64,000 nt of DNA from Bacillota bacterium (lineage in GTDB: Bacteria > Bacillota > Clostridia > Christensenellales > SZUA-584). Shown piece after piece: positions 2,674 through 23,212 of the stretch. The stretch is from positions 1,606 to 65,605 of the forward strand of contig JAEZHF010000020.1 of assembly GCA_023416745.1 (NCBI GenBank). The letters are read 5' to 3'. The stretch's first letter is position 1. Each line of letters starts with the position of its first letter. Both the position numbers and the translations under genes were made by a program. The notes under the pieces are model-generated. The model made no database searches. It was not told where the DNA came from and worked only from the letters and a program-made list of their open reading frames with translations.

Positions 2674-2691
2674 CGCTTTGCGCTATCCGAT

Positions 2692-2712
2692 GGCAAACTC
2701 TGTTTGCCTTCG
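2692..2712 (+). terminator. weak hairpin downstream of the 749-aa gene
   Basis: GGCAAAC-tct-GTTTGCC 7-bp stem followed only by TTCGG. The T-tract is poor. Confidence 0.3.
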
Positions 2713-2858
2713 GGGGGGACGCCCAGCTTGTGCGCACAGTATACGGGCTTTGGTGTCCCCCGTCCAGGCCCCGCCCCATAAAGCCCTGCGTCTTAAATAT
2801 AAAAAGCTGCCAACACTTTGTCAGCAGCCCGACGCCGTTTCGCGGCTTTCGTATTTTT

Positions 2859-4247
2859 CTATTTGATACGGTAACTGTAATGCGGGCGCTTTTTACTGAA
2901 TCGTTTGCGCTTGCGCCGCGTCACCGTCAGCAGGCGAACCACAAGAAATACGATGAGACCCGCTGGTATGATCAGCCAGTACAGCACGCTGCCGTCCGAC
3001 TTCTTTATTTCTTCAATGTTGACCGGCTGCACGACGGTCACGGCAGTGCCGCCGCTGGCGTCCGGTTCCGCTCCGGCCTGAAGCACGTCGCGCGTGGCGA
3101 TCAGATTGCCCGTATGGATTTCATCGCCGGTGGATTTACTCCTGTACGTCACTGTGCCCAGCACATCGCCCTTGAGTATAGGGGCTTGCAGCGTGCTGGT
3201 ATATTCCGGAACAGCCTCGATCGAATCCGTACCGTTCAGTATGCCTTCCGCCAGTTCCTTGTCAATGGTTGCATAAGTTCCGGGGCTCTGCGGCCCTTCA
3301 AACACCAACAGCCCGTCGTTCTCGTCGGTGGACGCGAAATTCTCGATCTGAACTTTTACCGGTTCAGCCTTGTTCAGCAACTGCTGCAAATCTATCGTCA
3401 CATAATTGTTGAACCCGAAATCGAACAGATTCTTGGCAAGCGGCCAGCGGTTCTTGCCATTCGAGGAATCATCCTTGAATATCAGGCAGATCAGGTTCAT
3501 ATCGTCATTGGATGCAGACACCACCAGACATCCGCCCGCCTGTTCAGTAGAGCCTGTTTTGCCGCCTGTTGCATAAGGATAATAGGCATCCTTACCGCTG
3601 AGCATCATTGAGTTTGTATTGTTCTTGACCTTTTGCGATTGCTTGTTTGACTGCGGCATCGTATAGGATTCGCGGTCAATGATCTCCATGAACGCCGGGT
3701 TTTTCATCGCATACTGCATGAGCTTGGCCATATCGCTGGCCGTCGTGACGTGCTCTTCGTCATGCATACCGTGCGGGTTCACAAAGTGCGTGTTGTTCAT
3801 GCCCAGTGCCTGTGCCTTAGAATTCATCAGGTCGGCGAATTTGGCCACATCGCCGCTCACCGCTTCCGCGACCGCAATGGCCGCGTCGTTGCCGGAAACC
3901 ATCATCATGCCATGCAGCAGGTCTCCCAACTCGACAGCTTCATCTTCTTCAAGGTCAAGGGAAGACCCTCTGGCATCCGACGCTTCTTCGCTGACTGTCA
4001 CCTTGGTGTCCATGCTAAGGCCGCTCTCCAGCCCCAGTATGCACGTCATGATCTTGGTGGTGCTGGCCGGCTCAACACGCTCGTCCTTATTTTTTGCGTA
4101 CATCTCAAAGCCGGAATCTGCGTCAAGCAGCATTACGGCAAAAGGCTCAACCTCACCGTCATACTGCGGCGCAGCTGCCAACACACTGCCGGCAAAGCTA
4201 AGCATAACAAATGTAAATATAACTAAAACAGTTATGACCCTTCTCAA
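2859..4247 (-). CDS. D-alanyl-D-alanine carboxypeptidase (S11, PBP5/DacB-like) with C-terminal TM anchor
   Basis: Signal-like N-terminus; SxxK 'PASTTKIMT'; 'VSGNDAA' (SxN); 'GGKTGST' (KTG); C-terminal hydrophobic LYWLIIPAGLIVFLVV plus basic tail. TTG start at 4247. Confidence 0.9.
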   Translation of the reverse strand: MRRVITVLVIFTFVMLSFAGSVLAAAPQYDGEVEPFAVMLLDADSGFEMYAKNKDERVEPASTTKIMTCILGLESGLSMDTKVTVSEEASDARGSSLDLEEDEAVELGDLLHGMMMVSGNDAAIAVAEAVSGDVAKFADLMNSKAQALGMNNTHFVNPHGMHDEEHVTTASDMAKLMQYAMKNPAFMEIIDRESYTMPQSNKQSQKVKNNTNSMMLSGKDAYYPYATGGKTGSTEQAGGCLVVSASNDDMNLICLIFKDDSSNGKNRWPLAKNLFDFGFNNYVTIDLQQLLNKAEPVKVQIENFASTDENDGLLVFEGPQSPGTYATIDKELAEGILNGTDSIEAVPEYTSTLQAPILKGDVLGTVTYRSKSTGDEIHTGNLIATRDVLQAGAEPDASGGTAVTVVQPVNIEEIKKSDGSVLYWLIIPAGLIVFLVVRLLTVTRRKRKRFSKKRPHYSYRIK

Positions 4248-4334
4248 ACTGCAACATCCCCCACTATCAGCCTTTATTTCAGGCTGTCATCAACTACAGT
4301 ATATCATAACTGGGACAAAAACATAATCCCGGAA

Positions 4335-5732
4335 CTAGCGGCGTACTCTTTTTCTGCTCACGGCGCGCCGCCTGCGCGCATATCGTTTCTTGCGCTGGAT
4401 TGCCATCACGACGAGTATGGCCAGAATTACAGCCAGAGCGGCACCCACGGCGATCAGTATCCATCCGATAAGCCCGATACCGTCGTCTTTGTCCGTCGGT
4501 ACCGGCGTTTGGTTATCCGTCTGTTCAGTGCCGGCAGTCTGCGATGGCTGCGCCGGAACGCTGTCTGCCAACGCCACCGCCTGCGACGCAATCAGTTTAC
4601 CCTGACAAATCATCTCTCCCGAACCGGTGAGGTAATTGATCACGCCCACCGTTTCACCCTCCGTGACAGGCGCCGTCAGCGACTCACCGCTGTTGAGCAC
4701 GATCTGCGTGGTGAGTCCCGCATCCACCTGACTGGCAAGCTCCAGTTCAAACGTCTGATAAGCTTTACCGGTGTTCACGATGTTGAGGCTCAACGATTCG
4801 CTGCCCGGAGCAGCCCCCTGCACATTTACGCTGACAGGATCGGTACCGTCAATGATGGACTGAATATCTAACGTCTTGAAGTTGTCGAAGCCGAACTCGA
4901 ACATCGACTTGCTCAGCGGCCAGCGTTCACTCCCATTGTATTCGTCCTTAAATACCAAACAGATCAGGTTCACGCCGTCCTTGCTGGCCGAAGACACGAG
5001 GCAATCGCCCGCAGCCGGGGTAGAACCCGTCTTGATACCCGTCGCGTACTTATAATAGTATTTATTATTCTTATCAATATCGGTCGGAAGCAAGAGTTTA
5101 TTGGTATTGGTCACCACCCACGCCTCGCTGTGCTTATTGTCGGCGGGCATGGTGTAGGTGGTTTGTCCCACTATCTGCGCAAAATCAGGGTTCTGCATCG
5201 CGTATAGCGTGAGCAATGCCATATCGCGCGCAGTCGTGTGATGGTTGTCCACGTGCATGCCGTGTGAAACCACAAAATTGGTGTTTGTCATTCCCAGATC
5301 GCGCGCCTTGTCGTTCATCATATCGGCGAAGCCTTCTTCAGAGCCGCCTAACACTTCAGCCACAGCCACAGCCGCGTCATTACCCGACGCCAGCATCATT
5401 CCGTTTATCAGGTCTTTAAAGACGATTTCCTCACCAGAAGAGATATGCAGCAATGAACCGCGCTGTTTTGCCGCATTGGACGATACCGTGACGACACTTT
5501 CCATATCCCCTTTTTCCAGCGCGAGCAGCAGCGTCATGATCTTGGTTGTACTTGCCGGTTCAACGATCTCATCCGCATTCTTTTCGTATAACACGTCGCC
5601 CGAGTTGGCGTCCAGCAGCATGACCGCATACGGCTCCACTTTGCCGTCGTAAGCGGGCGCGGCCTGCGCGGTGCCCAGATACATCGTCATTACCATTAAA
5701 ACAATGAAAAACAAAGCTGTGACTTTTTTCAA
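4335..5732 (-). CDS. D-alanyl-D-alanine carboxypeptidase paralogue (S11) with C-terminal TM anchor
   Basis: 'PASTTKIMT', 'ASGNDAA', 'GIKTGST'. Same architecture as the neighbour. C-terminal GWILIAVGAALAVILAILVV plus Arg/Lys tail. TTG start; AAAGGAG lies 11 nt upstream. Confidence 0.9.
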   Translation of the reverse strand: MKKVTALFFIVLMVMTMYLGTAQAAPAYDGKVEPYAVMLLDANSGDVLYEKNADEIVEPASTTKIMTLLLALEKGDMESVVTVSSNAAKQRGSLLHISSGEEIVFKDLINGMMLASGNDAAVAVAEVLGGSEEGFADMMNDKARDLGMTNTNFVVSHGMHVDNHHTTARDMALLTLYAMQNPDFAQIVGQTTYTMPADNKHSEAWVVTNTNKLLLPTDIDKNNKYYYKYATGIKTGSTPAAGDCLVSSASKDGVNLICLVFKDEYNGSERWPLSKSMFEFGFDNFKTLDIQSIIDGTDPVSVNVQGAAPGSESLSLNIVNTGKAYQTFELELASQVDAGLTTQIVLNSGESLTAPVTEGETVGVINYLTGSGEMICQGKLIASQAVALADSVPAQPSQTAGTEQTDNQTPVPTDKDDGIGLIGWILIAVGAALAVILAILVVMAIQRKKRYARRRRAVSRKRVRR

Positions 5733-5937
5733 AATCCCGTTAGCTCCTTTTATATAATCACTATTTAGTATAACAGCTTAATAAGCGTTTGTGAATGCCA
5801 ATATATACAGCATCCGTGTATTGATTGTAAACATTCATGACCGGATTATAGAATATTCCCGGCTTCGGGATGTTCTCCGGCTCCTTTAGCAATAAAAACA
5901 ATGGCTAAATGCAAAAAACGATACGGCAGCGAAATGA

Positions 5938-5977
5938 TAAAAAGAAGGCGCTTTACCCTGAGTCCGGCAAAGCGCCT
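5938..5977 (-). terminator. intrinsic terminator after the Zn-ADH gene pair
   Basis: 9-bp stem AGGCGCTTT / AAAGCGCCT (5946-5954 / 5969-5977). On the minus strand it is followed by TCTTTTTATC. Confidence 0.7.
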
Positions 5978-6012
5978 GAAAATAATACGAAGTTATATGC
6001 TGTCCTTCTTGT

Positions 6013-7041
6013 TCAGGGTATGACAACCGCCTTTACGGCTTTTTCAGTGACCACACTTTCAAACGCCTTGTCGATATCGCTGAACGCAAACGCAGTAATA
6101 TATTTTTCCACGTTCAGTTTGCCGCTCACCACCATCTCCAGTACATGCCTGTTTTGAGCCACTGTGGAAGCATGTGCCCCGAAAACGCCCAATTCCTTGT
6201 AGTGAATCAGGTTGCTGTCAAGATGATAATTGTCGACGCCGGGCAGGCCGCCGAACAGGCTTATCCTTCCGTTCTTGTACAGCAGCTCCAGCCCTTGACG
6301 GTGCGTAATACCCGCCGGGGCCGCCGTAATCACCACATCCACACCTCCGCCCGTCATCCGGCGCACTGCATCCATATAGCCAGGGTCACCCGAATCGACC
6401 ACCTCAACGTTGGGCACGAACTGCTTAACGCTTTTACGTCTGCTTTCAGAAATCTCCGCGATGATCACTTGAGCGGCGCCCTGAATATAGGCTAGCTCGG
6501 CATGAATACAGCCAAGATAACCTGAGCCGTAGATGAGCACGTTGTCGCCTTTCTCAATCTTCAGATAAGTCTGCGCGTTCACCGCGCACGCCACCGGTTC
6601 CACCACGGACGCGGCAGTATCCGATATGCTGTCTGGTATCGGTATTAAATGCCCCCGCCGGATTGCCAGCTCAGGAATGCGGATATATTCCGCAAACGTC
6701 CCGTCAAACTGGAACCCAATGCTTTGCAGGGTGTCGCACATGTTCGTCCGTCCCTTTATGCAGCTCTTGCACTCCCCGCAGCCGATGGCCGGCGCCATGA
6801 TATAACGACCGCCCACCTTCAGTCCTGTTGCAGCGTTGGCCTCGACGATTTCGTAGCACGCCTCATGCCCCATCACGATGGGCGTTTTCAGCTTGGCATT
6901 GCCAAAGCGGTATGTCCGAAGATCTGTACCGCAGATGGATGCACACCGTATCTTCGCAACAGCCTCACCCGCGCCCGCCTTGGGCATCGGTACTTCATCT
7001 GTCGAAAATTTCGTCTCGCCGTGGTAAATAAATGCTTTCAT
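6013..7041 (-). CDS. zinc-dependent medium-chain alcohol/polyol dehydrogenase
   Basis: 'MKAFIYHGE' start (M36 of track ORF 6013..7146); 'CGTDLRTY', 'GHEACYEIVE', 'GCGECKSC' structural-Zn cysteines, 'YGSGYLGC' Rossmann motif. Confidence 0.85.
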   Translation of the reverse strand: MKAFIYHGETKFSTDEVPMPKAGAGEAVAKIRCASICGTDLRTYRFGNAKLKTPIVMGHEACYEIVEANAATGLKVGGRYIMAPAIGCGECKSCIKGRTNMCDTLQSIGFQFDGTFAEYIRIPELAIRRGHLIPIPDSISDTAASVVEPVACAVNAQTYLKIEKGDNVLIYGSGYLGCIHAELAYIQGAAQVIIAEISESRRKSVKQFVPNVEVVDSGDPGYMDAVRRMTGGGVDVVITAAPAGITHRQGLELLYKNGRISLFGGLPGVDNYHLDSNLIHYKELGVFGAHASTVAQNRHVLEMVVSGKLNVEKYITAFAFSDIDKAFESVVTEKAVKAVVIP

Positions 7042-7051
7042 TGCACACTCC

Positions 7052-8113
7052 TTATTCCAAACCCCAGGGGAAGAAGAGTATCTTGTTGAAGAAAATCTCC
7101 CTGCGGTGTATCTTCTCGAACGTCTCCGCGACGTCCTCCAGCACAAGGCGGTGTGTGATCACCTTGGTTGCATCGATGGTGCCGTCCGCAAGACTGTCCA
7201 CACCATGCGTCCATTCCCAGCCCGGGAACGGCTTGGAGAACGAGTTCCACGAACCTTTGAGCGTCTTTTCGCCTCTCATGATCATATCCACGCATTTTTC
7301 CGAAAGCTCGAGCGGCTTGTGAGATATGCCAAGGAATACCATCGTGCCGTGCTTGGCTGTCGCCATGATCGCATTGTGCTGTGCCGGCGGGAAACCGGAC
7401 GCATCGATGCAGATATCGGCGCCGCCATCCGTCGCTTTAACAATCTGCTCCACCACATCGGCCGCCGTTCCGTCGATGCACACATCCGCGCCGGACAGCG
7501 CCGCCGCTTTGAGCTTCTCTTCTCCGACATCTACTGCCACCACAACCGAGGCGCCTTTGGCTTTCATATACTGCAGCGCATACAGGCCGATGGTGCCCAC
7601 GCCCACAACGCATACTTTGTCTCCGGCCTTGAAGCCGCTGCGCTTAATGGAATGCAGTGCGTTGGCCAGCGGATCGGTAGTCGCCGCCGCTTCATACGTC
7701 ACATTGTCGGCGACTTTTAAGAGATTGATTTCCGGTACGGCGACATACTGCGCGAAAGCCCCGTCGCAGCGAGACCCAAAATAGTTGTAGTCTTTACAAA
7801 GCGAGAAGGAACCTTCCTGGCAATATTCGCACTTAAAGCAAGGCATCAGCGGCGGCACCGTCACACGGTCTCCCACCTTGTATTTCTTGACCTCGTTGCC
7901 CACTTCCACGATCTGTCCGGCGAACTCATGTCCCGGCGTGATGGGCGAGATATACGCACCGTACTCGTTGATGCGCGGGATGTCTGATCCGCAGATGCCC
8001 ACTGCCATCACCTTAATCAGCGCCTCGTTCTCTTTAATCTGGGGGATCGCAACTTCCTCCAGTTTCAAGTCCCTCGGCGCATACATTCTGACTGCTTTCA
8101 TTGTTCCGTTCAT
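7052..8113 (-). CDS. zinc-dependent medium-chain polyol(-phosphate) dehydrogenase (sorbitol / galactitol-1-P dehydrogenase-like)
   Basis: 'CGSDIPR', 'GHEFAGQIVEVG', 'CFKCEYCQEG', 'VVGVGTIGL'. GAAAGGAAG RBS 8 nt before the ATG. Confidence 0.85.
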   Translation of the reverse strand: MNGTMKAVRMYAPRDLKLEEVAIPQIKENEALIKVMAVGICGSDIPRINEYGAYISPITPGHEFAGQIVEVGNEVKKYKVGDRVTVPPLMPCFKCEYCQEGSFSLCKDYNYFGSRCDGAFAQYVAVPEINLLKVADNVTYEAAATTDPLANALHSIKRSGFKAGDKVCVVGVGTIGLYALQYMKAKGASVVVAVDVGEEKLKAAALSGADVCIDGTAADVVEQIVKATDGGADICIDASGFPPAQHNAIMATAKHGTMVFLGISHKPLELSEKCVDMIMRGEKTLKGSWNSFSKPFPGWEWTHGVDSLADGTIDATKVITHRLVLEDVAETFEKIHRREIFFNKILFFPWGLE

Positions 8114-8164
8114 TATCCTGACTTCCTTTCAAAAATATAATATAATGTTTTTAAAGCCTGCCTG

Positions 8165-8941
8165 TTATACGATATAGAGCTCAATGCCCAAATCCCGGAT
8201 CATGTCGGCGTAACGCGTTTCCACATCCGAATCGGTAATGATAATATCAAAATCCTCCAGCTGCGCATACCGGGCATACCAGGCCTTGCCCATCTTTGAC
8301 GAGTCCGCCAGCAGTATTTTTTGCTCGCTCACTGCCAGCGCCGCCTTCTTCATTTCAATTTCATACGATTCGGCAGTGGTGATGCCCACTTCTGATGTCA
8401 GCCCGCGCGTGGCCATAAACGCCTTGTTGATCTTCGTCTTCCTGATCAGAGACGCTCCTTCTTCACTTTCAAACATGCGTGTATTTCGGTGGAAAAATCC
8501 GCCGCAAGCCACCACGCTTAAATTGGGCATCTCGCAGACTCCCTGGATGATATTGAGCGCATAGCAATAGACGATGTTGCGTGATTCCTTTGGAATATAA
8601 TCGATGATCGACGAGGTGGTGGAGCCGGTATCAATCAGCAGTACGTCGTTGGGCATGATCAGAGACGCTGCTTTGCGGGCAATGCGCATTTTTTGCGGGG
8701 CCTTCTCCCCCAGTTCCTGCTCAATATCATAAGGTGCTGGTTTTGGAGCAGAGGAAGCCGGCCGCAGCGACACGCCGCCATAAAATATGCTGATTACGCC
8801 CTGATCTTTCAGTATCTGAAGATCACGCCGCACAGTCATTTCAGACGTGCCCAGGCTCTTCGCGAACTCGCGGATCGTGATCACGTTTTGTTTTTGCAGC
8901 ATTTCCTCGATGAGGTCAAGCCGCCTGTTCTTATCGTCCAT
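8165..8941 (-). CDS. DeoR family transcriptional regulator
   Basis: HTH 'ITIREFAKSLGTSEMTVRRDLQIL' plus a DeoR C-terminal sugar-phosphate sensor-like domain. Start chosen at MDDKNRR (GAGGA 6 nt upstream); the track ORF extends to 8965. Confidence 0.85.
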   Translation of the reverse strand: MDDKNRRLDLIEEMLQKQNVITIREFAKSLGTSEMTVRRDLQILKDQGVISIFYGGVSLRPASSAPKPAPYDIEQELGEKAPQKMRIARKAASLIMPNDVLLIDTGSTTSSIIDYIPKESRNIVYCYALNIIQGVCEMPNLSVVACGGFFHRNTRMFESEEGASLIRKTKINKAFMATRGLTSEVGITTAESYEIEMKKAALAVSEQKILLADSSKMGKAWYARYAQLEDFDIIITDSDVETRYADMIRDLGIELYIV

Positions 8942-8998
8942 GATAGTCCTCGTTCCTGATTTCATATTAACATCGGTGCTTGCATTACGTCAATAAAA

Positions 8999-9019
8999 AT
9001 GTTGTTACTTTAACAACAT
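8999..9019. promoter_or_regulatory. perfect 9-bp inverted repeat in the deoR/HAD divergent intergenic region (candidate operator)
   Basis: ATGTTGTTA-ctt-TAACAACAT read directly from the sequence. Confidence 0.35.
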
Positions 9020-9115
9020 GTCGTGAGCATCGCTGCTAAATTTGCTTTGCAAACGGTTCAGGCGACATGTATAATAGACGCAAATAAAAGTTTTTATTTT
9101 GATTCTGGAGGAAAA

Positions 9116-9937
9116 ATGGCATACAAACTCATTGCAATTGACGTTGATGACACGCTGCTGGACAACAGCCTGAACATCCCTGAAAGGGTCAGCCGGGCCA
9201 TACGGAAGGCAACCCAAAAAGGTGTCCGAGTTGTGTTGTGCACCGGACGGACCAAAAAGGGCGGCCAACGCTTTTATGATGAGCTGGGGCTCGATACGTT
9301 GTATATTACGGCAGGCGGCGCCGAAGTATACGACGCCGCAGGTCATGCGCTGTTTACGCGCGGTGTGGACCCGCCGCTGGTCAAACAGATACTCGAGTAT
9401 GCCACACAGCACGACATCCACGCTCAGGTATATATCGACGGTGAGCTTGTGTACAGCAAAAAAAGCTTCTATTCCAATCTGTACGAGCAGTCATACGGCC
9501 ATCCCGGCATTGTGGAGCCAGACCTGCTCAAAATGCCGCGGATCATCACCCCCAAGGTGTTGTTTGTGATCGATGAGGACAGGATTGCTGATGTGAAAGA
9601 GGATGTTGAGAAGCGTTTTCCGATGCTTACGATCAAGCAGTCCAAACCGGTTTATCTGGAATTCGCCCACCCGAGCGTCAACAAAGGGGAAGCGCTGGCT
9701 TTTACAGCCAGTCATTATGGCATAGAACGCCAGGACATCATCGCCATCGGGGATACGGATATCGATATTCCCATGATTGAGTATGCTGGCCTCGGCGTTG
9801 CCATGGCCAACGCAGCTCCACATGTTCTGGCCGTGGCGGACATCATCTGCCCTTCCAATGAAGAAGGCGGCGTTGCGGATGTTATCGAAAAATATATACT
9901 GGAGGAAGTCTATGAAAGTCAAGCTCAAACTCGATGA
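9116..9937 (+). CDS. Cof-type HAD-IIB phosphatase
   Basis: 'IAIDVDDTLL' motif I, 'LCTGR' motif II, 'GDTDIDIPMIEYAGLGVAMANA' motif IV. GGAGG precedes the ATG at 9116. Confidence 0.85.
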   Translation: MAYKLIAIDVDDTLLDNSLNIPERVSRAIRKATQKGVRVVLCTGRTKKGGQRFYDELGLDTLYITAGGAEVYDAAGHALFTRGVDPPLVKQILEYATQHDIHAQVYIDGELVYSKKSFYSNLYEQSYGHPGIVEPDLLKMPRIITPKVLFVIDEDRIADVKEDVEKRFPMLTIKQSKPVYLEFAHPSVNKGEALAFTASHYGIERQDIIAIGDTDIDIPMIEYAGLGVAMANAAPHVLAVADIICPSNEEGGVADVIEKYILEEVYESQAQTR

Positions 9938-10853
9938 TCTTGTCAAAGATCTGAACCTGAGCATCGTCTATAGGGGAGACGTGCAGCATCTGGAGATCAA
10001 TACGTCGGATCTCAACCGTCCGGGGCTGCAGATGGCAGGTTTTTTTGAGTATTTCGCCGTCAACCGCATCCAGCTCTTTGGCATGGTGGAGATGACTTAT
10101 CTGCAGAACCTGGATCCGGAGCTCAAGCGAGAGAGGTTGGACAAGTACTTCGCCAGTCAGGTGCCCTGCGTGCTGATTGGGCGCAATCTGACGCCGCCGC
10201 CCGAAATGATCGAAGCTGCGAATAAGCATAACACACCGATACTGATGTCCGGCCTCACCACCACCAAGCTCTCTCACAAGACCACCGTCTACCTCGATAG
10301 AGTGCTCGCGCCCAGCATCTCGCGCCATGCGGGGTTGATGGACGTTTACGGCGTCGGCATACTGTTGATGGGCGATTCGGGCGTAGGCAAAAGCGAAACC
10401 GCGCTGGAACTGGTGAAGAGGAATCACCGTCTGGTGGCTGACGACGTGGTTGAAATCGTAAAGCTGTCGGACAACCAGCTTGTGGGTCAGTCCCCCGAGG
10501 TCATCCGCCATATGATGGAGATCCGCGGCCTCGGCATCATCGACGTGCGCACGCTGTATGGCATTGGCGCGGTGCTGGTGGAGAAATCCATCGAGCTTGC
10601 CGTCAATCTGGAACTAGGCGACCCAATGAACATCGACCGGCTGGGTCTTTCCGACGAGTATATTACGCTGCTTGGCGTCAAGATTCCTATCATCACGATA
10701 CCGGTGCGGCCTGGGCGCAACCTTGCCATCATCATAGAGGTGGCTGCGATGAACTACCGTCTGAAATGCATGGGGCATATCACTGCGGAGCAGTTGGACA
10801 GCAAACTGCTGGAGATCATCGCACCCGGCAGCAGCTGTATGAGGGGAGAATAG
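9912..10853 (+). CDS. hprK: HPr kinase/phosphorylase
   Basis: Walker A 'GDSGVGKSETALEL'; 'MEIRGLGIIDV' signature. GGAGGAAGTCT-ATG. Overlaps the HAD gene by 26 nt. Confidence 0.92.
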   Translation: MKVKLKLDDLVKDLNLSIVYRGDVQHLEINTSDLNRPGLQMAGFFEYFAVNRIQLFGMVEMTYLQNLDPELKRERLDKYFASQVPCVLIGRNLTPPPEMIEAANKHNTPILMSGLTTTKLSHKTTVYLDRVLAPSISRHAGLMDVYGVGILLMGDSGVGKSETALELVKRNHRLVADDVVEIVKLSDNQLVGQSPEVIRHMMEIRGLGIIDVRTLYGIGAVLVEKSIELAVNLELGDPMNIDRLGLSDEYITLLGVKIPIITIPVRPGRNLAIIIEVAAMNYRLKCMGHITAEQLDSKLLEIIAPGSSCMRGE

Positions 10854-12949: not shown

Positions 12950-13312
12950 CTATCCTTCCTCGATCTCGTACCCTGCCGCTTTCAACGCCTGCACGGCAGC
13001 TTCAAGGCTATCTTTTTTTACAAACAGGTAGTCTGTATCGTACGTGGACACCGCAAAGACGGATACGCCCGCTCTGGCCAATGTGCCCGTCAGTCCGGCC
13101 AATATGCCGATGAGCGAAAAATCCAGTACGCCGCACACACGCAGCCCGCGCCAGCCTTTCTCGGCCGCACAGCTGTCCGGCACGTGCTCCTCTTCGCACA
13201 CAAGCGATATTTCTCCGCAACTCACCGTCAGCGACGTGAATTCTCCGTCCGGCAGCTGCTTTGACTGCAGCCGGCAGACGGCATAGTCCTTTTTCAGCAA
13301 TTCCAGTTTCAT
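12950..13312 (-). CDS. ACT domain-containing protein (ACT_7-like)
   Basis: 120 aa. 'DFSLIGILAGLTGTLARAGVSVFAVSTYDTDYLFVK' is a typical ACT regulatory fold. Confidence 0.7.
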   Translation of the reverse strand: MKLELLKKDYAVCRLQSKQLPDGEFTSLTVSCGEISLVCEEEHVPDSCAAEKGWRGLRVCGVLDFSLIGILAGLTGTLARAGVSVFAVSTYDTDYLFVKKDSLEAAVQALKAAGYEIEEG

Positions 13313-13326
13313 ACTTGTCCCCCATT

Positions 13327-13352
13327 GGAAAAGCCGCCTGTCACGGCGGCTT
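13327..13352 (-). terminator. intrinsic terminator after the cell-wall hydrolase gene
   Basis: AAGCCGCC-gtgaca-GGCGGCTT, followed by TTTCC on the minus strand. Confidence 0.6.
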
Positions 13353-13378
13353 AAAGCTTTAAAACATCAGGTAATTAC

Positions 13379-14920
13379 TTAGCCCACAAACCTGTCATAG
13401 TATTTATCCACGCCAAATTCCTTGATCAATGCCTTCACCGTGGACGGCCCCGCAACCCCGTCTGACTCCAGTCCTTTCTTTTCCTGAAACTTCATCAGCT
13501 CGATCTTAGTGCCTTGACCAAAGTAACTGTCTGCTTTAACGTCATATCCTAGCTTGTTGAGCATATACTGAATGCGGTAAACCCTCTTTTCAGGCTTGCA
13601 TCCGTATTGGGCATATTTATATGTCCTCTCAAACAATGCGGGCGGTGCATCTCCACCGCGGTGGCGTCCGCTGTAGCTGTGCCTGTAGAAACAGTGCCCG
13701 CCGATCTTTTTATAGAACTTGTGGCTTCCCCAGTTCTCCCCCGCCGGTGCGCCGGAGCGGAAGTAATATATATCCTGCGGTATCACCCAAAGCTCATCAT
13801 CCAGCACCGCGCGGGCGGCCCGCTTGGAGGACGATGAAGGCTTTCTGTCTTCGCGTCCCGAATACGCGAACTGTCCGGGGCGCGTGATGACGTCAGTGAT
13901 CGTGCTGCCCGGGAATGTCCGGCACAGCACGCGGTTCATCACCACGTTGCCTACCGCCACCTTTCCATCGAAGCTTTCGCCGCGCGCCTCAATGTCAATG
14001 ATCTGTGCGAGCATATAATATTCGTTGTCCGTATACTCGTAATGGTTGTTGGAATAGCCCATTTCGTTGTAATAGGCATCCGCCTCTACAACGAAGAAAT
14101 CGAGCAGATCATTGACATCGACGGGTTTCGGCGTAGGGTCGGGCTCCGTCGTGGGAACCGGCGTCGTCGTCTCCTCCGGCGAGGTTGTGGGCACCTGCTC
14201 CGGCATTTCGGTCGGCGGAATGTCCACACCATTGACAGCGATCTCCGGCAGCGATGCCGTCGGGCTGACAGCCGGCGTCGGCGACAGGCTCAGCGAAGCC
14301 GTGGGGCTCTGAGACGCACCTGGGGTCCTCTGCGCGTCGATCAGCGCCGCCTTATTTACGCCTGTCACTTCGGCTTCCGCTGGTGCGGCCACGCCGCCCG
14401 GCACCAGGAACACGATCAGCAGCACCGCGATCACCGCCACGCCTGTACCTGCATACAGCAGAACGAGACGGTTTCGGCGACCCTTCTTCCCCAACCTCTT
14501 GTTGTTGGACGCAAAGGCAAGCGCTGCATCCGTCTTCATCGTTACACTTTTTGGTTTGTTAAATATGGAAAAGGCCAGCCCAAAGAAGCGGTTGAATAAT
14601 CCCTTACTTTTGTTTTTACTGCTGCGTGTTGAACGAAACGACGGAACAGGCTCGTCCGCAAATTGGTTATACGAATCCTCTTCTTCAAAACGTCTGGTCT
14701 TGGTCTTTTCCGAACGGACAGCCACCGGCGTTTCTTCGAGAAAATCATCAGAAACGCTCAGCTGATCCTGCGCACCGCATATTTTAGCTGCTGAAGGCGC
14801 TTTTGCATCCTCTTTTGTTTTTTTCGGAAATACAACACGCTGCGTTTTGACAGGCGAGTCTTTCTGGCCGGTTATATTTTTTAGGTTTTTCAGAGCACGA
14901 ATGCCTGAATTCTTTGCCAT
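13379..14920 (-). CDS. SleB-like cell wall hydrolase with N-terminal basic region, TM helix, Pro/Thr linker and C-terminal peptidoglycan-binding domain
   Basis: 'YYMLAQIIDIEARGESFDGKVAVGNVVMNRV..ITRPGQFAY' (Hydrolase_2-like). 'RIQYMLNKLGYDVKADSYFGQGTKIELMKFQEKKGLESDGVAGPST' (PG_binding_1-like). TM LVLLYAGTGVAVIAVLLIVFLV. Start at MAKNSG after AAGGAGAA; the track ORF reaches 14953. Confidence 0.8.
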   Translation of the reverse strand: MAKNSGIRALKNLKNITGQKDSPVKTQRVVFPKKTKEDAKAPSAAKICGAQDQLSVSDDFLEETPVAVRSEKTKTRRFEEEDSYNQFADEPVPSFRSTRSSKNKSKGLFNRFFGLAFSIFNKPKSVTMKTDAALAFASNNKRLGKKGRRNRLVLLYAGTGVAVIAVLLIVFLVPGGVAAPAEAEVTGVNKAALIDAQRTPGASQSPTASLSLSPTPAVSPTASLPEIAVNGVDIPPTEMPEQVPTTSPEETTTPVPTTEPDPTPKPVDVNDLLDFFVVEADAYYNEMGYSNNHYEYTDNEYYMLAQIIDIEARGESFDGKVAVGNVVMNRVLCRTFPGSTITDVITRPGQFAYSGREDRKPSSSSKRAARAVLDDELWVIPQDIYYFRSGAPAGENWGSHKFYKKIGGHCFYRHSYSGRHRGGDAPPALFERTYKYAQYGCKPEKRVYRIQYMLNKLGYDVKADSYFGQGTKIELMKFQEKKGLESDGVAGPSTVKALIKEFGVDKYYDRFVG

Positions 14921-15034
14921 GCAGCTTTTCTCCTTACAAAAACGTACACCCACATCATTATCCGTATCATACCGTAATCATTGCGATATGTCAATGAATC
15001 CGTAATACAATTGTAACATTTTGCGGTGTTTATT

Positions 15035-15535
15035 TTATCCAGCCAGCTGATTATCCAGCTGAATTTGAATGCTCTTTGCGTCAGCCGTCTTGCCGGGAGG
15101 CGCACCATGTATGCGCAGCAAATATGTCACCGAAGCGCCTTTCGTCTCCAGTGCTTGTTTATGGGTATTAAGGCTTTGGGGCGCCTTAGTCTCCGGCTGC
15201 GGGTCTGCCTGAACAGTAAAGAGTATGATCTGTTTACCCGCCGCATCCAGTCCATGGATAAATGCGTTGACCGCCGGAACGGTTTTGCCAGCCCACACCG
15301 GCGACCCGATGCATATCCTATCATATTCTCTCAATTCCTGTGCAAAGCTGGTTTTAAGGCGGCTGCGCAGTCCGAAAGACGCGCCGAATCCCGCTGCCAT
15401 AAATGAGGCCGCGGACTTGCCTCTCTTCTTTCCTTCCTCCAGCTCGAACACATCCGCCCCGAGCCTGTGCGCCAGCAGATCCGCCGCCAGACGCGTATTT
15501 CCGTCCCGGGAAAAGAAAACAACCGCCGTCTTCAT
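15035..15535 (-). CDS. flavodoxin family protein
   Basis: 'MKTAVVFFSRDGNTR' FMN-binding loop; 'ICIGSPVWAG'. AAGGAGAGG RBS. Confidence 0.8.
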   Translation of the reverse strand: MKTAVVFFSRDGNTRLAADLLAHRLGADVFELEEGKKRGKSAASFMAAGFGASFGLRSRLKTSFAQELREYDRICIGSPVWAGKTVPAVNAFIHGLDAAGKQIILFTVQADPQPETKAPQSLNTHKQALETKGASVTYLLRIHGAPPGKTADAKSIQIQLDNQLAG

Positions 15536-15546
15536 AATACCTCTCC

Positions 15547-16134
15547 TTAATAATCCGATATCGCCAGCGCCGTCTCTTTGAGCCCCAGCGTTTTAGCCGC
15601 CATTTCCCGTATGCCCCGATACAGATTCGGGCTGTCTGTCACCGGTCTCTGCAGCAGCGAGTCGATGCCGTAAAACACAATGGCTGAACAGACATCCGGA
15701 TTCTTGATATGGAAATAACCTCTCTCAATGCCCTCCAGCACCACATCCTCCAGCAAAGGCAGCAACGTGCGCGACCGCTCCTCCCGCAGCACCGTTTCAT
15801 ACCAATCCGCCCGCGCGTCTCCGAAGTATGAGTCGGTCTCGGGCGCAGTCTCCGCCTGCTCCATCAAAGAAGCAATAAAATATTCAGCACGTGATATTGC
15901 ATCCTGCAAAGAGTCCATCTGTTGCACGAGCTGCTCCCGGTATTCATCCATCTGCATGCCCAGAATGTACCGGACGATGGCCTGTTTGCTTTCAAAATGG
16001 TAAAAGAATGTGCCCTTTGCGATGCCGGCCAGTGCGCAGATCTCCTCCACTGGCGTCTGGTCATACCCCTTTTCGGAAAATAGTGTGCGTGCGCTGCTTA
16101 AAATCAGCATCCTTGTCGCTCTTTCGCCTGACAT
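15547..16134 (-). CDS. TetR/AcrR family transcriptional regulator
   Basis: HTH 'ARTLFSEKGYDQTPVEEICALAGIAKGTFFYHFESKQ'. Start at MSGER after GGAGGG; the track ORF reaches 16188. Confidence 0.85.
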   Translation of the reverse strand: MSGERATRMLILSSARTLFSEKGYDQTPVEEICALAGIAKGTFFYHFESKQAIVRYILGMQMDEYREQLVQQMDSLQDAISRAEYFIASLMEQAETAPETDSYFGDARADWYETVLREERSRTLLPLLEDVVLEGIERGYFHIKNPDVCSAIVFYGIDSLLQRPVTDSPNLYRGIREMAAKTLGLKETALAISDY

Positions 16135-16215
16135 AATATCCCTCCTGGTCCGTTGATTGCGGAACATGTTGCAATCATTATCGACCAAGGTCAGGTTTTT
16201 TATACTGTCGGGTCT

Positions 16216-16797
16216 CTATGCCAGCTGCCTGAGAACCGCAAAGCCGTTGCCGAGACTCAGTTTGGCAAACCCTGCGGGCTGTATATCGTAACAGAAGATA
16301 TGCTCGATGTCACCATGAAGAAGATATGATAACGCGGATAAGATAAAGCCCTTATGGGAAACGACCAGCACCCGGCTGTCCTGCGCTTCACTGATTATAG
16401 CATTAATCGTTTCCGAGGCATTTGTCAAGTAGCTGTGCACATTATCTCCGCCGGGAAACGTGTAACCCATATAATCGTCCATGTAAGCCTGCCACGCCTG
16501 GGGCATGCAGCATTGTATGTCGTCTGCGCCAAGGCCTTCAAACGCACCGAAATCCAGCTCGCGCAGCGATGGCAATACAACGATGTGTGTATCGGGCGCG
16601 ATGATGTCCGCCGTTTGCCGGGTGCGCAGCGCGTCACTGCAATATACGCGGCACGGGCTGAATGCCGACAACGCCAGCGCTGTCATCCTGACGTCCTCAA
16701 GCCCCTCCTGTGTCAGCGGCAGATCCAGCCGCCCGCAGTATACGCCGTCGATATTCGCCTGCGTTTTACCGTGCCGTACCAGCGTCAGTTCAGTCAC
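16216..16797 (-). CDS. histidine phosphatase family protein (CobC / phosphoglycerate mutase-like)
   Basis: 'LTLVRHGKTQAN' RHG motif; 'VVSHKGFI' second His. GTG start after TAGGAG. Confidence 0.8.
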   Translation of the reverse strand: MTELTLVRHGKTQANIDGVYCGRLDLPLTQEGLEDVRMTALALSAFSPCRVYCSDALRTRQTADIIAPDTHIVVLPSLRELDFGAFEGLGADDIQCCMPQAWQAYMDDYMGYTFPGGDNVHSYLTNASETINAIISEAQDSRVLVVSHKGFILSALSYLLHGDIEHIFCYDIQPAGFAKLSLGNGFAVLRQLA

Positions 16798-16819
16798 TCT
16801 CTGCTCCTACACATAAAGC

Positions 16820-16853
16820 AAAAAAGCGCCGCAAGGTGGCAGCGCTGTTTTTT
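16820..16853 (-). terminator. intrinsic terminator of the atp operon
   Basis: AGCGCTGCCACCTTGCGGCGCT hairpin flanked by an A-run and a T-run, 3 nt after the atpC stop. Confidence 0.75.
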
Positions 16854-16855
16854 GA

Positions 16856-17272
16856 TCAATCGAGGTTCTGTTTCTTGCGCCCCACGCGCAAGCGCACCAT
16901 CGCGCGGGCCAGCGCGATCTGGTTTTGCATGTACTCCTGATGGCTCTGCCGCTGACGGAGACGCTCCTCTGCGCGCTCTCTCGCTTCCTGGGCGCGTATC
17001 ATATCAATCTCCTCCGGCCATTCCACTGCCTGCGAGAATATGATCGTCTCATCCGGGCGCACCTCCACGAAACCCTCAGACGTGGTGCAGTCCTTCCAAT
17101 CGCCGTTAATATTAATGCGCATCGCCCCGATGGACAGCGCGCACACCATTGGTTCGTGCATCTTCTGTATGCTTAAGAAACCGTCGGGTGTCGGGAGTAT
17201 GACGCTCTCCACGTCGCCGCAATAGAATGTCCGTTCAGGCGTTATAATTTCCAGTGTATATTTCGCCGGCAT
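16856..17272 (-). CDS. atpC: F1 ATP synthase epsilon subunit
   Basis: 138 aa. N-terminal beta-sandwich 'LEIITPERTFY..VESVILPT..G' plus a C-terminal helical hairpin. Last gene of the atp operon. Confidence 0.9.
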   Translation of the reverse strand: MPAKYTLEIITPERTFYCGDVESVILPTPDGFLSIQKMHEPMVCALSIGAMRININGDWKDCTTSEGFVEVRPDETIIFSQAVEWPEEIDMIRAQEARERAEERLRQRQSHQEYMQNQIALARAMVRLRVGRKKQNLD

Positions 17273-17288
17273 ACCGCTTTTTCCCCCG

Positions 17289-19573
<2,285 letters not shown>

Positions 19574-19574
19574 G

Positions 19575-21404
19575 TTATTGCTCGACCTCATTTTCCAGCT
19601 TGATCGCGTTCTGCTGGCAGTAAATCGGGAGGAACTCCTCCGCAGCCTTGCGCAGCTCGGTAACAGCGTCTTCCGGCAGATCGCCCGTCTTCTCGATTGT
19701 CAGCCGTACTTCGGGGTAGTTTGTGTCCACATAGTCCAGATAACGCCGGTTGAACTCCTTAACATGATTAAACGGCAGTTTCACCAGATACTTGTTGATT
19801 GCAACGTAAAGCACGATGACCTGGCTCGCCATGGACAGAGGCGAAAATTGCTGCTGTTTCAAAGACTCGGTCAGCCGTGCGCCCTGATCCAGTGTCTCAC
19901 GCGTCGTCTTATCGAGGTCGGAAGCGAACTGCGCGAATACCGCCAGCTCGCGGTACTGTGCAAGGTCCAGACGCAGGCGGCCCGCTACCTTTCTCATGGC
20001 CTTGATCTGCGCACTGCCGCCCACACGGGACACCGATAGACCCACGTTGACAGCTGGCCTGATGCCTGCGTTGAACAGCTCGGATTCCAGGAATATCTGC
20101 CCGTCCGTTATGGAAATGACGTTGGTCGGTATGTATGCCGAAATATCGCCCGCCATCGTTTCGATGATGGGCAGCGCCGTCATGGAACCGCCGCCGTGTG
20201 CTTCGTTCAGACGCGCGGCGCGCTCCAACAGCCGTGAATGCAGATAGAATACATCGCCCGGATACGCCTCGCGGCCCGGCGGGCGACGGAGCAGCAGCGA
20301 CATGGTGCGGTAAGCCACCGCATGCTTGGACAGATCGTCATACACGATCAGCGCGTCCTTTCCGGCATACATGAACTCCTCAGCGATGGCGCAACCTGAG
20401 TACGGCGCGATATACTGCATCGACGGAGCATCGCTGCCGGTGGACGCCACCACGATGGTATAGTCCAGCGCGCCCTCTTCCTCCAGCGTCTTGATGATGC
20501 CCGCGATGGTGGACGCCTTCTGGCCGATGGCTACGTATATGCAGTAAACATTCTTGCCCTTCTGGTTGAGTATCGTGTCCACGGCGATCGCCGTCTTGCC
20601 TGTCTGGCGGTCACCTATGATCAGCTCTCTTTGCCCCTTGCCGATGGGCACCATGCTGTCGATGGACATAATGCCCGTCTCCAGCGGGCTCTTCACGCCC
20701 TGCCGGTCAAATATTTGCGGTGCCTCCGCTTCGATAGCCCTGAACTTATCGGCATATACCTTGCCTTTGCCGTCCATCGGAACACCCAAAGGGCTCACGA
20801 CACGGCCCAGCAGCGCTTCGCCGACGGGCACCTGCACCACGGTACCGGTGTTGCGCACATTGGAGCCTTCAGACACGTCCCAGACGTTGTTGAGCAGCAC
20901 CGCACCAATGCTCTCCATTGAGAGATTCATCACAATGCCGAACGAGTTATTTTCAAACTCCAGCAGCTCTCCGTATTTGCTGCCTTCCAGGCCTCTCACC
21001 AGCACGATGCCGTCGCCCGAGGATATGACGGTGCCGATCTCGGTCACGTCCATCTCGCCGGTATATTCCTTGATGCGCTCCTTCGTGGCCTGCCCGAACT
21101 CTTCCGGGTTAAAATCCAGCGAAAAATCGCCTTCCTCCAGCGCATCCTGCCGGTACGGAGATTCCGCATCCACAATAAAGCTTTTTATTTTGCCCAGGTG
21201 TGCGCGGACGCTTCTGTCGTATACCTTGTTGCCGATCACAACAACAAAGCCGCCCAGCAGTTCCGGCACCACTTCGGTAGCAAAGCTGATCTCTTCACCC
21301 ACGAGGGATTCAAATCGCTTTTTAATCGATTTTATCGTCAGGTCGTCCAGTGCAACCGCCGATTTCAGTTTTCCTTCGATAGCCAAATCATCCCACCCTC
21401 TCAA
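19575..21404 (-). CDS. atpA: F1 ATP synthase alpha subunit carrying an N-terminal delta(OSCP) C-terminal-domain-like extension
   Basis: Alpha core: '[18 protein letters not shown]', Walker A '[18 protein letters not shown]', '[28 protein letters not shown]'. The N-terminal ~80 aa '[60 protein letters not shown]' resemble the C-terminal third of delta subunits. Start is TTG at 21404, or TTG at 21386 after GGGTGG. Confidence 0.9.
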
Positions 21405-21873
21405 AGAACTCGTCGATGATCTTGCGGTTATCGTCCAGAGAAATCTCTCGCGCCAGTACCTTTTCCGCTATCTGTATGCTCATCTCAGCGATCTCTGTCT
21501 TCATATCCTGCCTGACCTGTACCTTTTCCGCCTCGATCTCGCGTTTTGCCCGTACGACAAGCCCGCGCGCATGCTCCTTCGCGTCATCAACGATCTCGCG
21601 CGCATGGTCGCGTGCCATTTCGTTGCTCTTGGTGATGATCGCCGCCGCTTCGTTATGGGCATTTGCCATCATCTGCTCATATTCTTCTTTTTGCTGTATC
21701 AGCTGCTTATCACGGTCATCCAGTTCGTCCACTTTATTTGAGAACTTGTATTCACGGTTCTTCATGAATTTGAGTATCGGTTTATAGACCAGTAAACGCA
21801 ATATTACAAATAGGATCAGAACATTCAGCACATGGAGGCCGATATTCAACGGATCTATTTCGAGCATGACCAC
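21388..21873 (-). CDS. atpF: F0 ATP synthase b subunit
   Basis: N-terminal TM '[18 protein letters not shown]', then a long charged helix. GTG at 21873, or ATG at 21867 after GAGGTG. Confidence 0.88.
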
Positions 21874-21901
21874 ACCTCACTTATGTCATAATACCTCGTC
21901 T

Positions 21902-22132
21902 TTATTCAATTCCCGGGATTTTTCCCATCATCAAAATGGCAATAACGAAGCCGTAAATGGCTGTCGTCTCAGCAAACGCCAGACCGATCAGAAGCATTGC
22001 GTTGATCTTGCCGCTGGCTTCGGGCTGCCGCGCCACTGCATCCGCCGCTTTGCCGGTGGCGATGCCCATGCCGATGCCCGCACCCAGGCCCGTCAGAACC
22101 GCCAGCCCCACACCAATTGCAATAATACCCAT
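21902..22132 (-). CDS. atpE: F0 ATP synthase c subunit
   Basis: Hairpin with an 'ARQPE' loop and carboxylate 'LAFAETTAIYGFV'. The ATG at 22132 lies 7 nt after GGAGGT; the track ORF start at 22147 sits inside the RBS. Confidence 0.93.
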   Translation of the reverse strand: MGIIAIGVGLAVLTGLGAGIGMGIATGKAADAVARQPEASGKINAMLLIGLAFAETTAIYGFVIAILMMGKIPGIE

Positions 22133-22170
22133 TTTTCTTACCTCCAATAATATAGATTAATAATTGAATG

Positions 22171-22905
22171 CTATCGCTTAGCCCCGTACATAACCGTCTC
22201 TTCCATGAAGGACAGCGTCAGCACAAGGAATATATACGTTTGTATGCCCACATGGAACAGGTTGAAATATATCGCAAGGAATGCCGGTATTACAAACTTG
22301 AGATATACTACACTATAGAGCAAATCCATCACGACCATGCCGGCAAACATGTTGCCGAACAGACGGAAGGACAGCGACACAGGTATGACAGCATGCGTCA
22401 CCATGTTGATGGGCAGCATAAACGCCTTGGGTTTCACAAACCATTTCAGCCGCCCGAAGAATCCGGTAAAGTAAAAACCGAACGCGTTGATGAGCACAAA
22501 CGACATCATCGCCAGTGCGATGGTGAAGTTGATGTCCGTCGCCGGAGGCCGGAAGCCAAACAGCTCGACGAGACTGGTGCTCACAATCATCAGCGCTACG
22601 GTAAATATGTACGCAGCAAATGCAGCGCCGCGCTTTCCTAGCTGGGTGTTGGAGAATTTCTCGCAAAATTCGACAAACATCTCCAGTATATTCTGTATGC
22701 CTTTGGGAACAGTTTTAAAGCGGGGAATAATAAACAGGCGGATGACAACAGCAAAAGCAATCAGTATCAGCATGACCATCCAGGTTATCAACATCGTTTC
22801 ACTGATCTCTAGACCAAACAGTGATACTTTGGGAGGCATTATCGAAATCTCTTCCATCTCCAGACCTGGAGTTTGTCCCAAACCTGTCATCATGCTCTCA
22901 ACCAT
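22171..22905 (-). CDS. atpB: F0 ATP synthase a subunit
   Basis: 'VSLSFRLFGNMFAGMVV' contains the conserved stator Arg. Start at MVESMM after AAAGGA; the track ORF reaches 22938. Confidence 0.9.
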   Translation of the reverse strand: MVESMMTGLGQTPGLEMEEISIMPPKVSLFGLEISETMLITWMVMLILIAFAVVIRLFIIPRFKTVPKGIQNILEMFVEFCEKFSNTQLGKRGAAFAAYIFTVALMIVSTSLVELFGFRPPATDINFTIALAMMSFVLINAFGFYFTGFFGRLKWFVKPKAFMLPINMVTHAVIPVSLSFRLFGNMFAGMVVMDLLYSVVYLKFVIPAFLAIYFNLFHVGIQTYIFLVLTLSFMEETVMYGAKR

Positions 22906-23212
22906 GGCTGATGTCCTTTCCGTCCGAATGGCTGTCATTTTCCTTGCCGTCTTTGCGGCGGCGCCACTGCAGAACCACCGCCAATGCGGCTATCATGCCG
23001 ATCAGCATGCCTGCACCTGTCCAGAGCAGATGCGTCAGGGAAACGGTCGCGATCAGATACAGAGCCAGCACGATCAAGGCAATTTTGCCGATCAAAAGCA
23101 GCGCGCCAAGCAGCTTGGCTGTCGTATCGCGGCCAAGTATCATTTTTCCAAGTTTATAGAGTGCAAACACCTGTAATGCACCAATTGCCAATCCGATAAA
23201 CAAGCCCCACAT
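22898..23212 (-). CDS. atpI: AtpI/AtpZ-like small membrane protein
   Basis: 104 aa with three hydrophobic segments, directly upstream of and overlapping atpB. No clear SD. Confidence 0.5.
   Translation of the reverse strand: MWGLFIGLAIGALQVFALYKLGKMILGRDTTAKLLGALLLIGKIALIVLALYLIATVSLTHLLWTGAGMLIGMIAALAVVLQWRRRKDGKENDSHSDGKDISHG

Follow-up and report, generated by a model that had tools for sequence, protein, structure and literature searches.

In an uncultured Christensenellales-type lineage of the Clostridia, the alpha subunit of the F-type ATP synthase is very probably made as one 603-aa chain, in which the b-binding domain of subunit delta is followed by an acidic linker and then by a complete alpha that keeps its N-terminal helix, and the gene that encodes this chain is very probably genuine and conserved in the lineage. 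The gene lies within the window, the whole stretch of 64,000 nucleotides that was analysed, in a minus-strand operon that reads 104-aa membrane ORF, atpB, atpE, atpF, fused ORF, atpG, atpD, atpC (Table 1). To judge from sequence, the fused ORF is the sole alpha and the sole delta homologue of the genome's single F-type operon. An initial annotation of this DNA had described a delta C-terminal module joined in frame to the N-terminus of alpha, the loss of the delta N-terminal helical bundle, an acidic linker ahead of a normal alpha N-terminus, and the absence of both a free-standing atpH and any room for one in the operon. All of these claims hold, on the evidence set out below.

Table 1. Coordinates of the operon genes and of the parts of the fused gene, as positions in the window
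Feature	Position	Strand	Description
Fused delta C-terminal domain + F1 alpha gene	19575..21386	-	603 aa + stop, TTG 21386 start; alternative TTG 21404 gives 609 aa
Delta/OSCP C-terminal (b-binding) domain	21180..21380	-	residues 3-69 of the 603-aa protein; PF00213
Acidic linker	21114..21167	-	about residues 74-91 (roughly 17-18 aa); alignment
Canonical alpha N-terminal helix region	21051..21113	-	residues 92-112; alignment to solved alpha chains
Alpha core (beta-barrel, nucleotide-binding, C-terminal domain)	19578..21050	-	starts at residue 113; PF02874, PF00006, PF00306
Shine-Dalgarno-like GAGGGTGGGA inside the end of atpF	21391..21400	-	ahead of the fused-gene start; conserved in the window and 9 congeners
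atpF, subunit b	21388..21873	-	161 aa; Pfam PF00430, E 3e-22; the operon's only b gene
atpE, subunit c	21902..22147	-	81 aa; Pfam PF00137
atpB, subunit a	22171..22938	-	255 aa; Pfam PF00119; the genome's only F-type a gene
Three-helix membrane ORF in the AtpI position	22898..23212	-	104 aa; no supporting profile
atpG, gamma	18710..19591	-	Pfam PF00231, E 2e-89
atpD, beta	17289..18692	-	Pfam PF00006 and PF02874
atpC, epsilon with C-terminal helical domain	16856..17272	-	Pfam PF02823 and PF00401

The N-terminal segment of the fused ORF matches positions 103-170 of the 172 positions in the OSCP profile (PF00213), on residues 9-75 in the numbering of the 609-aa frame, and the match is significant (E 2e-13; 51 bits against a cut-off of 22.3). 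The same module aligns to residues 113-175 of Bacillus PS3 delta (6n2y_I) and to residues 10-75 of the engineered fusion chain 9jc1_I, and profile and alignment together point to a delta/OSCP C-terminal alpha/beta domain. Profile positions 1-102, which correspond to the delta N-terminal bundle, were matched neither in the ORF nor in the rest of the genome at E values up to 10, and just 2 residues precede the delta C-domain in the 603-aa protein. The alpha domains follow in frame from residue 121 of the 609-aa numbering (PF02874; PF00006, E 2e-81; PF00306, E 4e-45). All of the hallmarks of an F1 alpha are present, namely the N-terminal beta-barrel, a nucleotide-binding domain with the Walker A motif GDRQTGKT and the helical C-terminal domain, and the protein matches solved alpha chains with E values up to 5e-201. 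Over residues 9-587, the 603-aa protein aligns with the engineered delta(deltaN)-alpha chain 9jc1_I of PDB 9JC1.

Residue 3 of the solved alpha chains aligns to residue 92 of the fused protein, and this places the alpha N-terminal helix region, which docks on delta and b in solved enzymes, directly after the linker. The linker, roughly 17 residues in length, is conserved among congeners and varies outside the genus. An AlphaFold2 model of the 603-aa protein, built with a 43-sequence alignment, is of low confidence (mean pLDDT 59.9, pTM 0.45) and was used for secondary structure only; it predicts strands at residues 3-9, 33-39, 49-51 and 54-56 and helices at 15-29 and 58-73 in the delta module, then coil at 74-93 and a helix at 94-109.

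The long ORF at 19575-21404 on the minus strand contains 609 codons for amino acids when counted from the TTG at 21404. The stop codon of the b gene occupies 21388-21390 and the in-frame TTG codons of the fused ORF stand at 21404 and 21386, so there is no space for an atpH between atpF and the fused ORF. The initial annotation had left the choice between the two start codons open, and our comparison favours 21386 and disfavours 21404. In eight congeneric relatives, GTG is the first codon of the fused frame and comes immediately behind the b stop, with GAGGGTGGGA upstream, and public gene calls for 63 homologues start at the position equivalent to 21386, giving proteins of 603-604 aa. Because the starts in relatives and in public gene calls fall at the equivalent codon, after the b stop and behind GAGGGTGGGA, the fused gene most likely starts at TTG 21386 and encodes 603 residues.

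The order of the operon had been given as atpI-B-E-F, then a 609-aa ORF, then G-D-C; six atp genes in this series are confirmed by Pfam, but the atpI label lacks support. The 104-aa ORF upstream of atpB has no match to any Pfam family at E 0.001, ATP-synt_I included, and at E 0.1 gives weak, unrelated matches; we therefore do not retain an atpI identity for this ORF (22898-23212). Between it and the start of atpB there is a 41-nt overlap. At the other end of the fused gene, the gamma gene as annotated, from ATG 19591, shares 17 nt with the end of the alpha frame, and the true gamma start may be Met7 or Met10.

The assembly (3.07 Mb in 99 contigs, 92% complete) was searched in six frames with PF00213 at E values up to 10, and the fused ORF was its only match. 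The same holds for G014, a congeneric genome that is closed and 99% complete: no OSCP match but the fused one exceeds the cut-off. The genome of the window thus appears to have no separate delta gene, a conclusion that rests partly on congeners because the genome itself is 92% complete. A single F-type a gene, atpB, is present. The other ATP-synt_ab matches are the operon's beta, the A and B subunits of a V/A-type ATPase, FliI, and a sixth, weaker match on contig C13. The strongest ATP-synt_ab match in the genome (contig C95), considered as a second F-type enzyme, was rejected as FliI, which adjoins FliJ-like genes. Contig C61 carries, at 13000-22000 (positions 1003-9966 of locus L100), a complete operon for a V/A-type ATPase (I, K, E, C, F, A, B, D), and the genome carries two rotary ATPases, one F-type and one V/A-type.

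With a draft assembly in 99 contigs and a complete V/A-type operon in the same genome, the fusion might be explained as an assembly or sequencing artefact, or as part of an operon that is decaying after being made redundant by the V/A-type enzyme. Comparison with related genomes, which the initial annotation had advised, makes this hardly credible. The fused frame is present in all 22 of the 22 sampled same-genus species genomes, and also in other genera and families; in the genus and the other genera of its family the OSCP match is limited to profile positions of about 102-170 and the open frames are 597-638 aa long. Residues 1-125, used as a protein query, matched 64 clusters, which come from Christensenellales, Christensenellaceae and Eubacteriales MAGs and are labelled only 'F0F1 ATP synthase subunit alpha'. 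All combine PF00213, PF02874, PF00006 and PF00306 in 597-660 aa, with the single exception of a 372-aa fragment without PF00306. A search with the N-terminal 112 aa matched three loci, all of them MAGs (Bacillota, Christensenellaceae and Clostridia), with no cultivated carrier among them. In other words, the same open frame recurs in dozens of independently assembled species, closed genomes included, and this conservation excludes a frameshift artefact.

Selection on the gene leads to the same conclusion. Among nine genus and family members, dN/dS (Nei-Gojobori) comes to about 0.07 in the delta module and to about 0.05 in the alpha core, values that are rough because dS is saturated; on these sequence comparisons, purifying selection on the delta module is as strong as on the alpha core. 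Purifying selection comparable to that on the alpha core excludes a decaying gene as well as a frameshift artefact, and all eight genes of the operon are intact.

The fusion is one of three delta states in the order. From an order sample of 301 genomes, 168 of which have an OSCP match, we took 80 operons and added 12 other loci and the window, and the resulting 93 operons were classified with HMMs built from the fused family. Fused genes, that of the window included, account for 44 of the 93; another 30 have a free-standing short delta that consists of the C-domain only, with frames of 72-100 aa in most cases and a separate alpha gene behind it; and the remaining 19 have a full-length delta. 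A maximum-likelihood tree was computed from the alpha core without the delta part (IQ-TREE quick search, LG+G4, unrooted); it places the window in a clade with SH-aLRT 95 whose 20 members are fused alphas and come from four GTDB families. Eleven changes between the fused and free states are needed on this tree, and at least eight of them are forced by well-supported branches; gains and losses are indistinguishable since the tree is unrooted.

Fused lineages differ in how far the delta domain lies from the alpha beta-barrel: between the end of the one and the start of the other there are 1 to 71 aa, with a median of 37 that equals the window's value. In many fused lineages this distance is 21-26 aa, which is the length of the alpha N-terminal region alone, as in the engineered construct. 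We hypothesize that the decisive evolutionary step would have been the loss of the delta N-domain, which is common to the free short deltas across the order, and that fusion to alpha would be a secondary state that has repeatedly been switched with the free one. Joining the remaining delta domain to alpha would require the loss of just one stop codon. One operon with a full-length delta of 173 aa (L008; G025:C2, ORF 1441-1962) groups without support beside the fused clade, and by this placement there may have been more than one loss of the delta N-domain.

On the alpha tree, 18 of the 19 full-delta operons stand together in a clade of their own. Its GTDB-family distribution departs from taxonomy, and several genomes carry a full-delta and a short-delta operon together. 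The eighteen operons of the clade (L082-L099) are often found in genomes with a short-delta operon. This frequent co-occurrence, together with the departure from taxonomy, suggests that the clade is a laterally spread second F-type ATPase.

Other operons in the sample show further arrangements of the same domain. A free 182-aa 'delta' (L015; G029:C1, ORF 1201-1749) has two OSCP C-domain matches in one frame, with repeated 'KGYLV/KGYFV/RGELV...' units visible, and appears to consist of two or three tandem copies of the delta C-domain, not of an N-domain and a C-domain. A 733-aa frame (L032; G260:C47:15417-18541, ORF 448-2646) has about 153 residues before its delta C-domain and alpha, and may be a b-delta-alpha triple fusion; the contig also bears, about 11 kb away, another F-type operon (L092), which is canonical and has a full-length delta. 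Genomes G053, G167 and G246 have frames of 751-796 aa as well.

Even if the fused gene is genuine, a plain alpha could also be made from it. An internal start in the linker would give an alpha without the delta module beside the fused chain, and the head would then contain one fused and two plain alphas and bear a single stalk. The linker of the window does contain GGAGGAAGG, and an in-frame GTG (V72) and ATG (M112) exist. However, this GGAGG stretch results from encoding Glu-Glu-Gly, it disappears where congeners have Glu-Ala-Gly instead, and there is no ATG, GTG or TTG at a suitable distance behind it. V72 lacks a Shine-Dalgarno sequence, while M112 is unconserved, being Ile, Leu or Phe in relatives, and a start there would delete the alpha N-helix. 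In the window and 9 congeners we scanned every in-frame ATG, GTG and TTG together with any Shine-Dalgarno match ahead of it, and the only conserved start was the one behind the b stop; near the canonical alpha start, no in-frame start with a Shine-Dalgarno sequence was conserved in these ten sequences. The initial annotation had regarded translation of alpha from about residue 90-118, combined with a separate full-length atpH elsewhere, as an outcome that would overturn its reading, and no conserved start was found in that interval in the same set. In the several fused lineages whose delta domain lies 21-26 aa from the beta-barrel, there is no spare linker for an internal start. We consider the production of a second, plain alpha improbable.

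The two parts could also be separated after translation, with one fused chain being assembled and then cleaved in the acidic linker to leave a free short delta and a normal alpha. The use of free short delta genes (72-100 aa) by related families, the ease with which the fused and free states interchange and a linker that is predicted to be unstructured are all consistent with such cleavage. Against it, no protease site or self-cleaving motif was recognised in the linker, several lineages are almost without a linker, and an engineered fusion is functional uncleaved (PMC12229609). We think cleavage very improbable, and a single uncleaved chain in which the delta domain stays joined to alpha remains our preferred reading.

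The initial annotation knew of no described delta-alpha fusion, a statement that is out of date in view of Ueno et al. 2025 and Mulkidjanian et al. 2026. Ueno et al. (Nat Commun 2025, PMC12229609) engineered a Bacillus PS3 delta(deltaN)-alpha FoF1 (PDB 9JC1), in which b2 is bound canonically at each fusion site and up to three stalks form, each with its own a subunit, at an H+/ATP of 5.8. The same authors named natural delta-alpha fusions without the delta N-domain (the Acidaminococcus fermentans operon and UniProt G4Q3K6 and A0A1I2C5T3) and termed a multi-stalk structure 'highly likely' for A. fermentans (PMC12229609). A phylogenomic survey described delta-alpha and b-delta fusions with a shortened delta segment, and tied short deltas to large predicted c-rings (Mulkidjanian et al. 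2026, bioRxiv 10.64898/2026.10.01.756066). In Chloroflexus aurantiacus, the F1Fo enzyme has two stalks and two a subunits, held through a dimer of shortened delta N-domains (PMC12002316).

The window has the delta(deltaN)-alpha architecture, with a delta C-domain in frame on alpha, no delta N-domain and no separate delta gene. Its fused protein aligns over its whole length to 9jc1_I, in which the delta N-domain was likewise deleted and delta residues 105-178 were placed on the alpha N-terminus. However, the PS3 chain was designed whereas that of the window is natural, the window has about 15-20 extra linker residues, and the PS3 enzyme used epsilon-deltaC whereas the epsilon of the window is intact. 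With the natural fusions (A. fermentans, G4Q3K6, A0A1I2C5T3 and those of Mulkidjanian et al.) it shares a short delta on the alpha N-terminus and the lack of a full delta, a likeness drawn from their architecture as described; it differs from them in belonging to uncultured Christensenellales-type Clostridia. By its sequence, the fusion in the window belongs to a kind that is already in print.

The F-type enzyme of Chloroflexus aurantiacus, likewise natural, combines more than one stalk with an altered delta N-domain, and its delta C-domains dock b normally. Its delta, however, is a separate subunit that has a shortened N-domain and forms dimers through this domain, while in the window the N-domain is missing altogether and the C-domain is joined to alpha. 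In the mycobacterial b-delta fusion, b is joined to a full-length delta, replacing the contact between b and the delta C-domain, and the enzyme has one stalk. There too a covalent link replaces one non-covalent stator contact, but the window links the delta C-domain to alpha and so replaces the contact between the delta N-domain and alpha.

We base a mechanism on solved canonical structures and on the engineered PS3 fusion 9JC1. The N-terminal bundle of a canonical delta caps the three-fold axis and limits the enzyme to one stalk. More precisely, two alpha N-termini are bound by the delta N-domain, which is located on the pseudo-three-fold axis, while the b2 stalk is bound by the delta C-domain and the third alpha N-terminus (Ueno et al., PMC12229609). 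In the fused enzyme, by analogy, each of the three alphas would bring its own docking site for a b2 stalk, and the covalent link would stand in for the lost contact between the delta N-domain and alpha. A working enzyme would need at least one b2-a stator arm docked on a unit of delta C-domain and alpha N-helix. The axis would be unoccupied and nothing in the head would block two or three arms; whether two or three form in vivo would depend on the supply of a and b, the size of the c-ring and packing. That the normal working state has two or three b2-a stator arms on one c-ring is possible on this analogy, and we put it forward tentatively as the less expected outcome. Several arms may likewise be found in the enzymes of sister lineages with free short deltas.

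The host is a gut-type anaerobic member of the Clostridia that has the fused design as its sole F-type enzyme. The solved c subunits nearest to that of the window are Na+-binding ones, from Acetobacterium woodii, Fusobacterium nucleatum and Ilyobacter tartaricus (4BEM, 3ZK1 and 1YCE). The window's c subunit retains their Glu-Thr-Thr...Tyr ligands and has Met in place of their Gln or Glu, and because of this Met its ion specificity, as read from sequence, is ambiguous. Two RnfD/NqrB-family genes (G000:C6:19386-20294 and G000:C68:27057-27947) suggest two ion-pumping complexes of the Rnf or Nqr type. We conjecture that a high ion/ATP ratio would make an enzyme well suited to synthesize ATP on a small gradient made by Rnf.

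How low the membrane potential can fall before ATP synthesis becomes impossible depends on the ion-to-ATP ratio, and to our knowledge the size of the c-ring alone was thought to set this ratio until 2025. Extra stalks with extra a subunits can multiply it, as seen in the engineered fusion of the delta C-domain to alpha (PMC12229609) and in the Chloroflexus enzyme (PMC12002316). The present analysis contributes a clade of Christensenellales type in which four families are fixed for the fusion, and shows that short deltas, whether fused or free, occur side by side and often change from one state to the other; it also corrects the start codon and finds no conserved internal start. For annotation, it means that fused proteins are labelled merely 'subunit alpha' and that the genomes that carry them seem to be without atpH.

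Fused, free and canonical operons, sometimes within one genome, provide a broad natural test set, which could be used to ask whether multi-stalk ATP synthases exist in nature and what use they are. If several arms are indeed present, the enzyme would be a natural counterpart of the engineered multi-stalk one and its ions per ATP would be doubled or tripled, such that a fermenter bearing Rnf could make ATP from a very small ion gradient.
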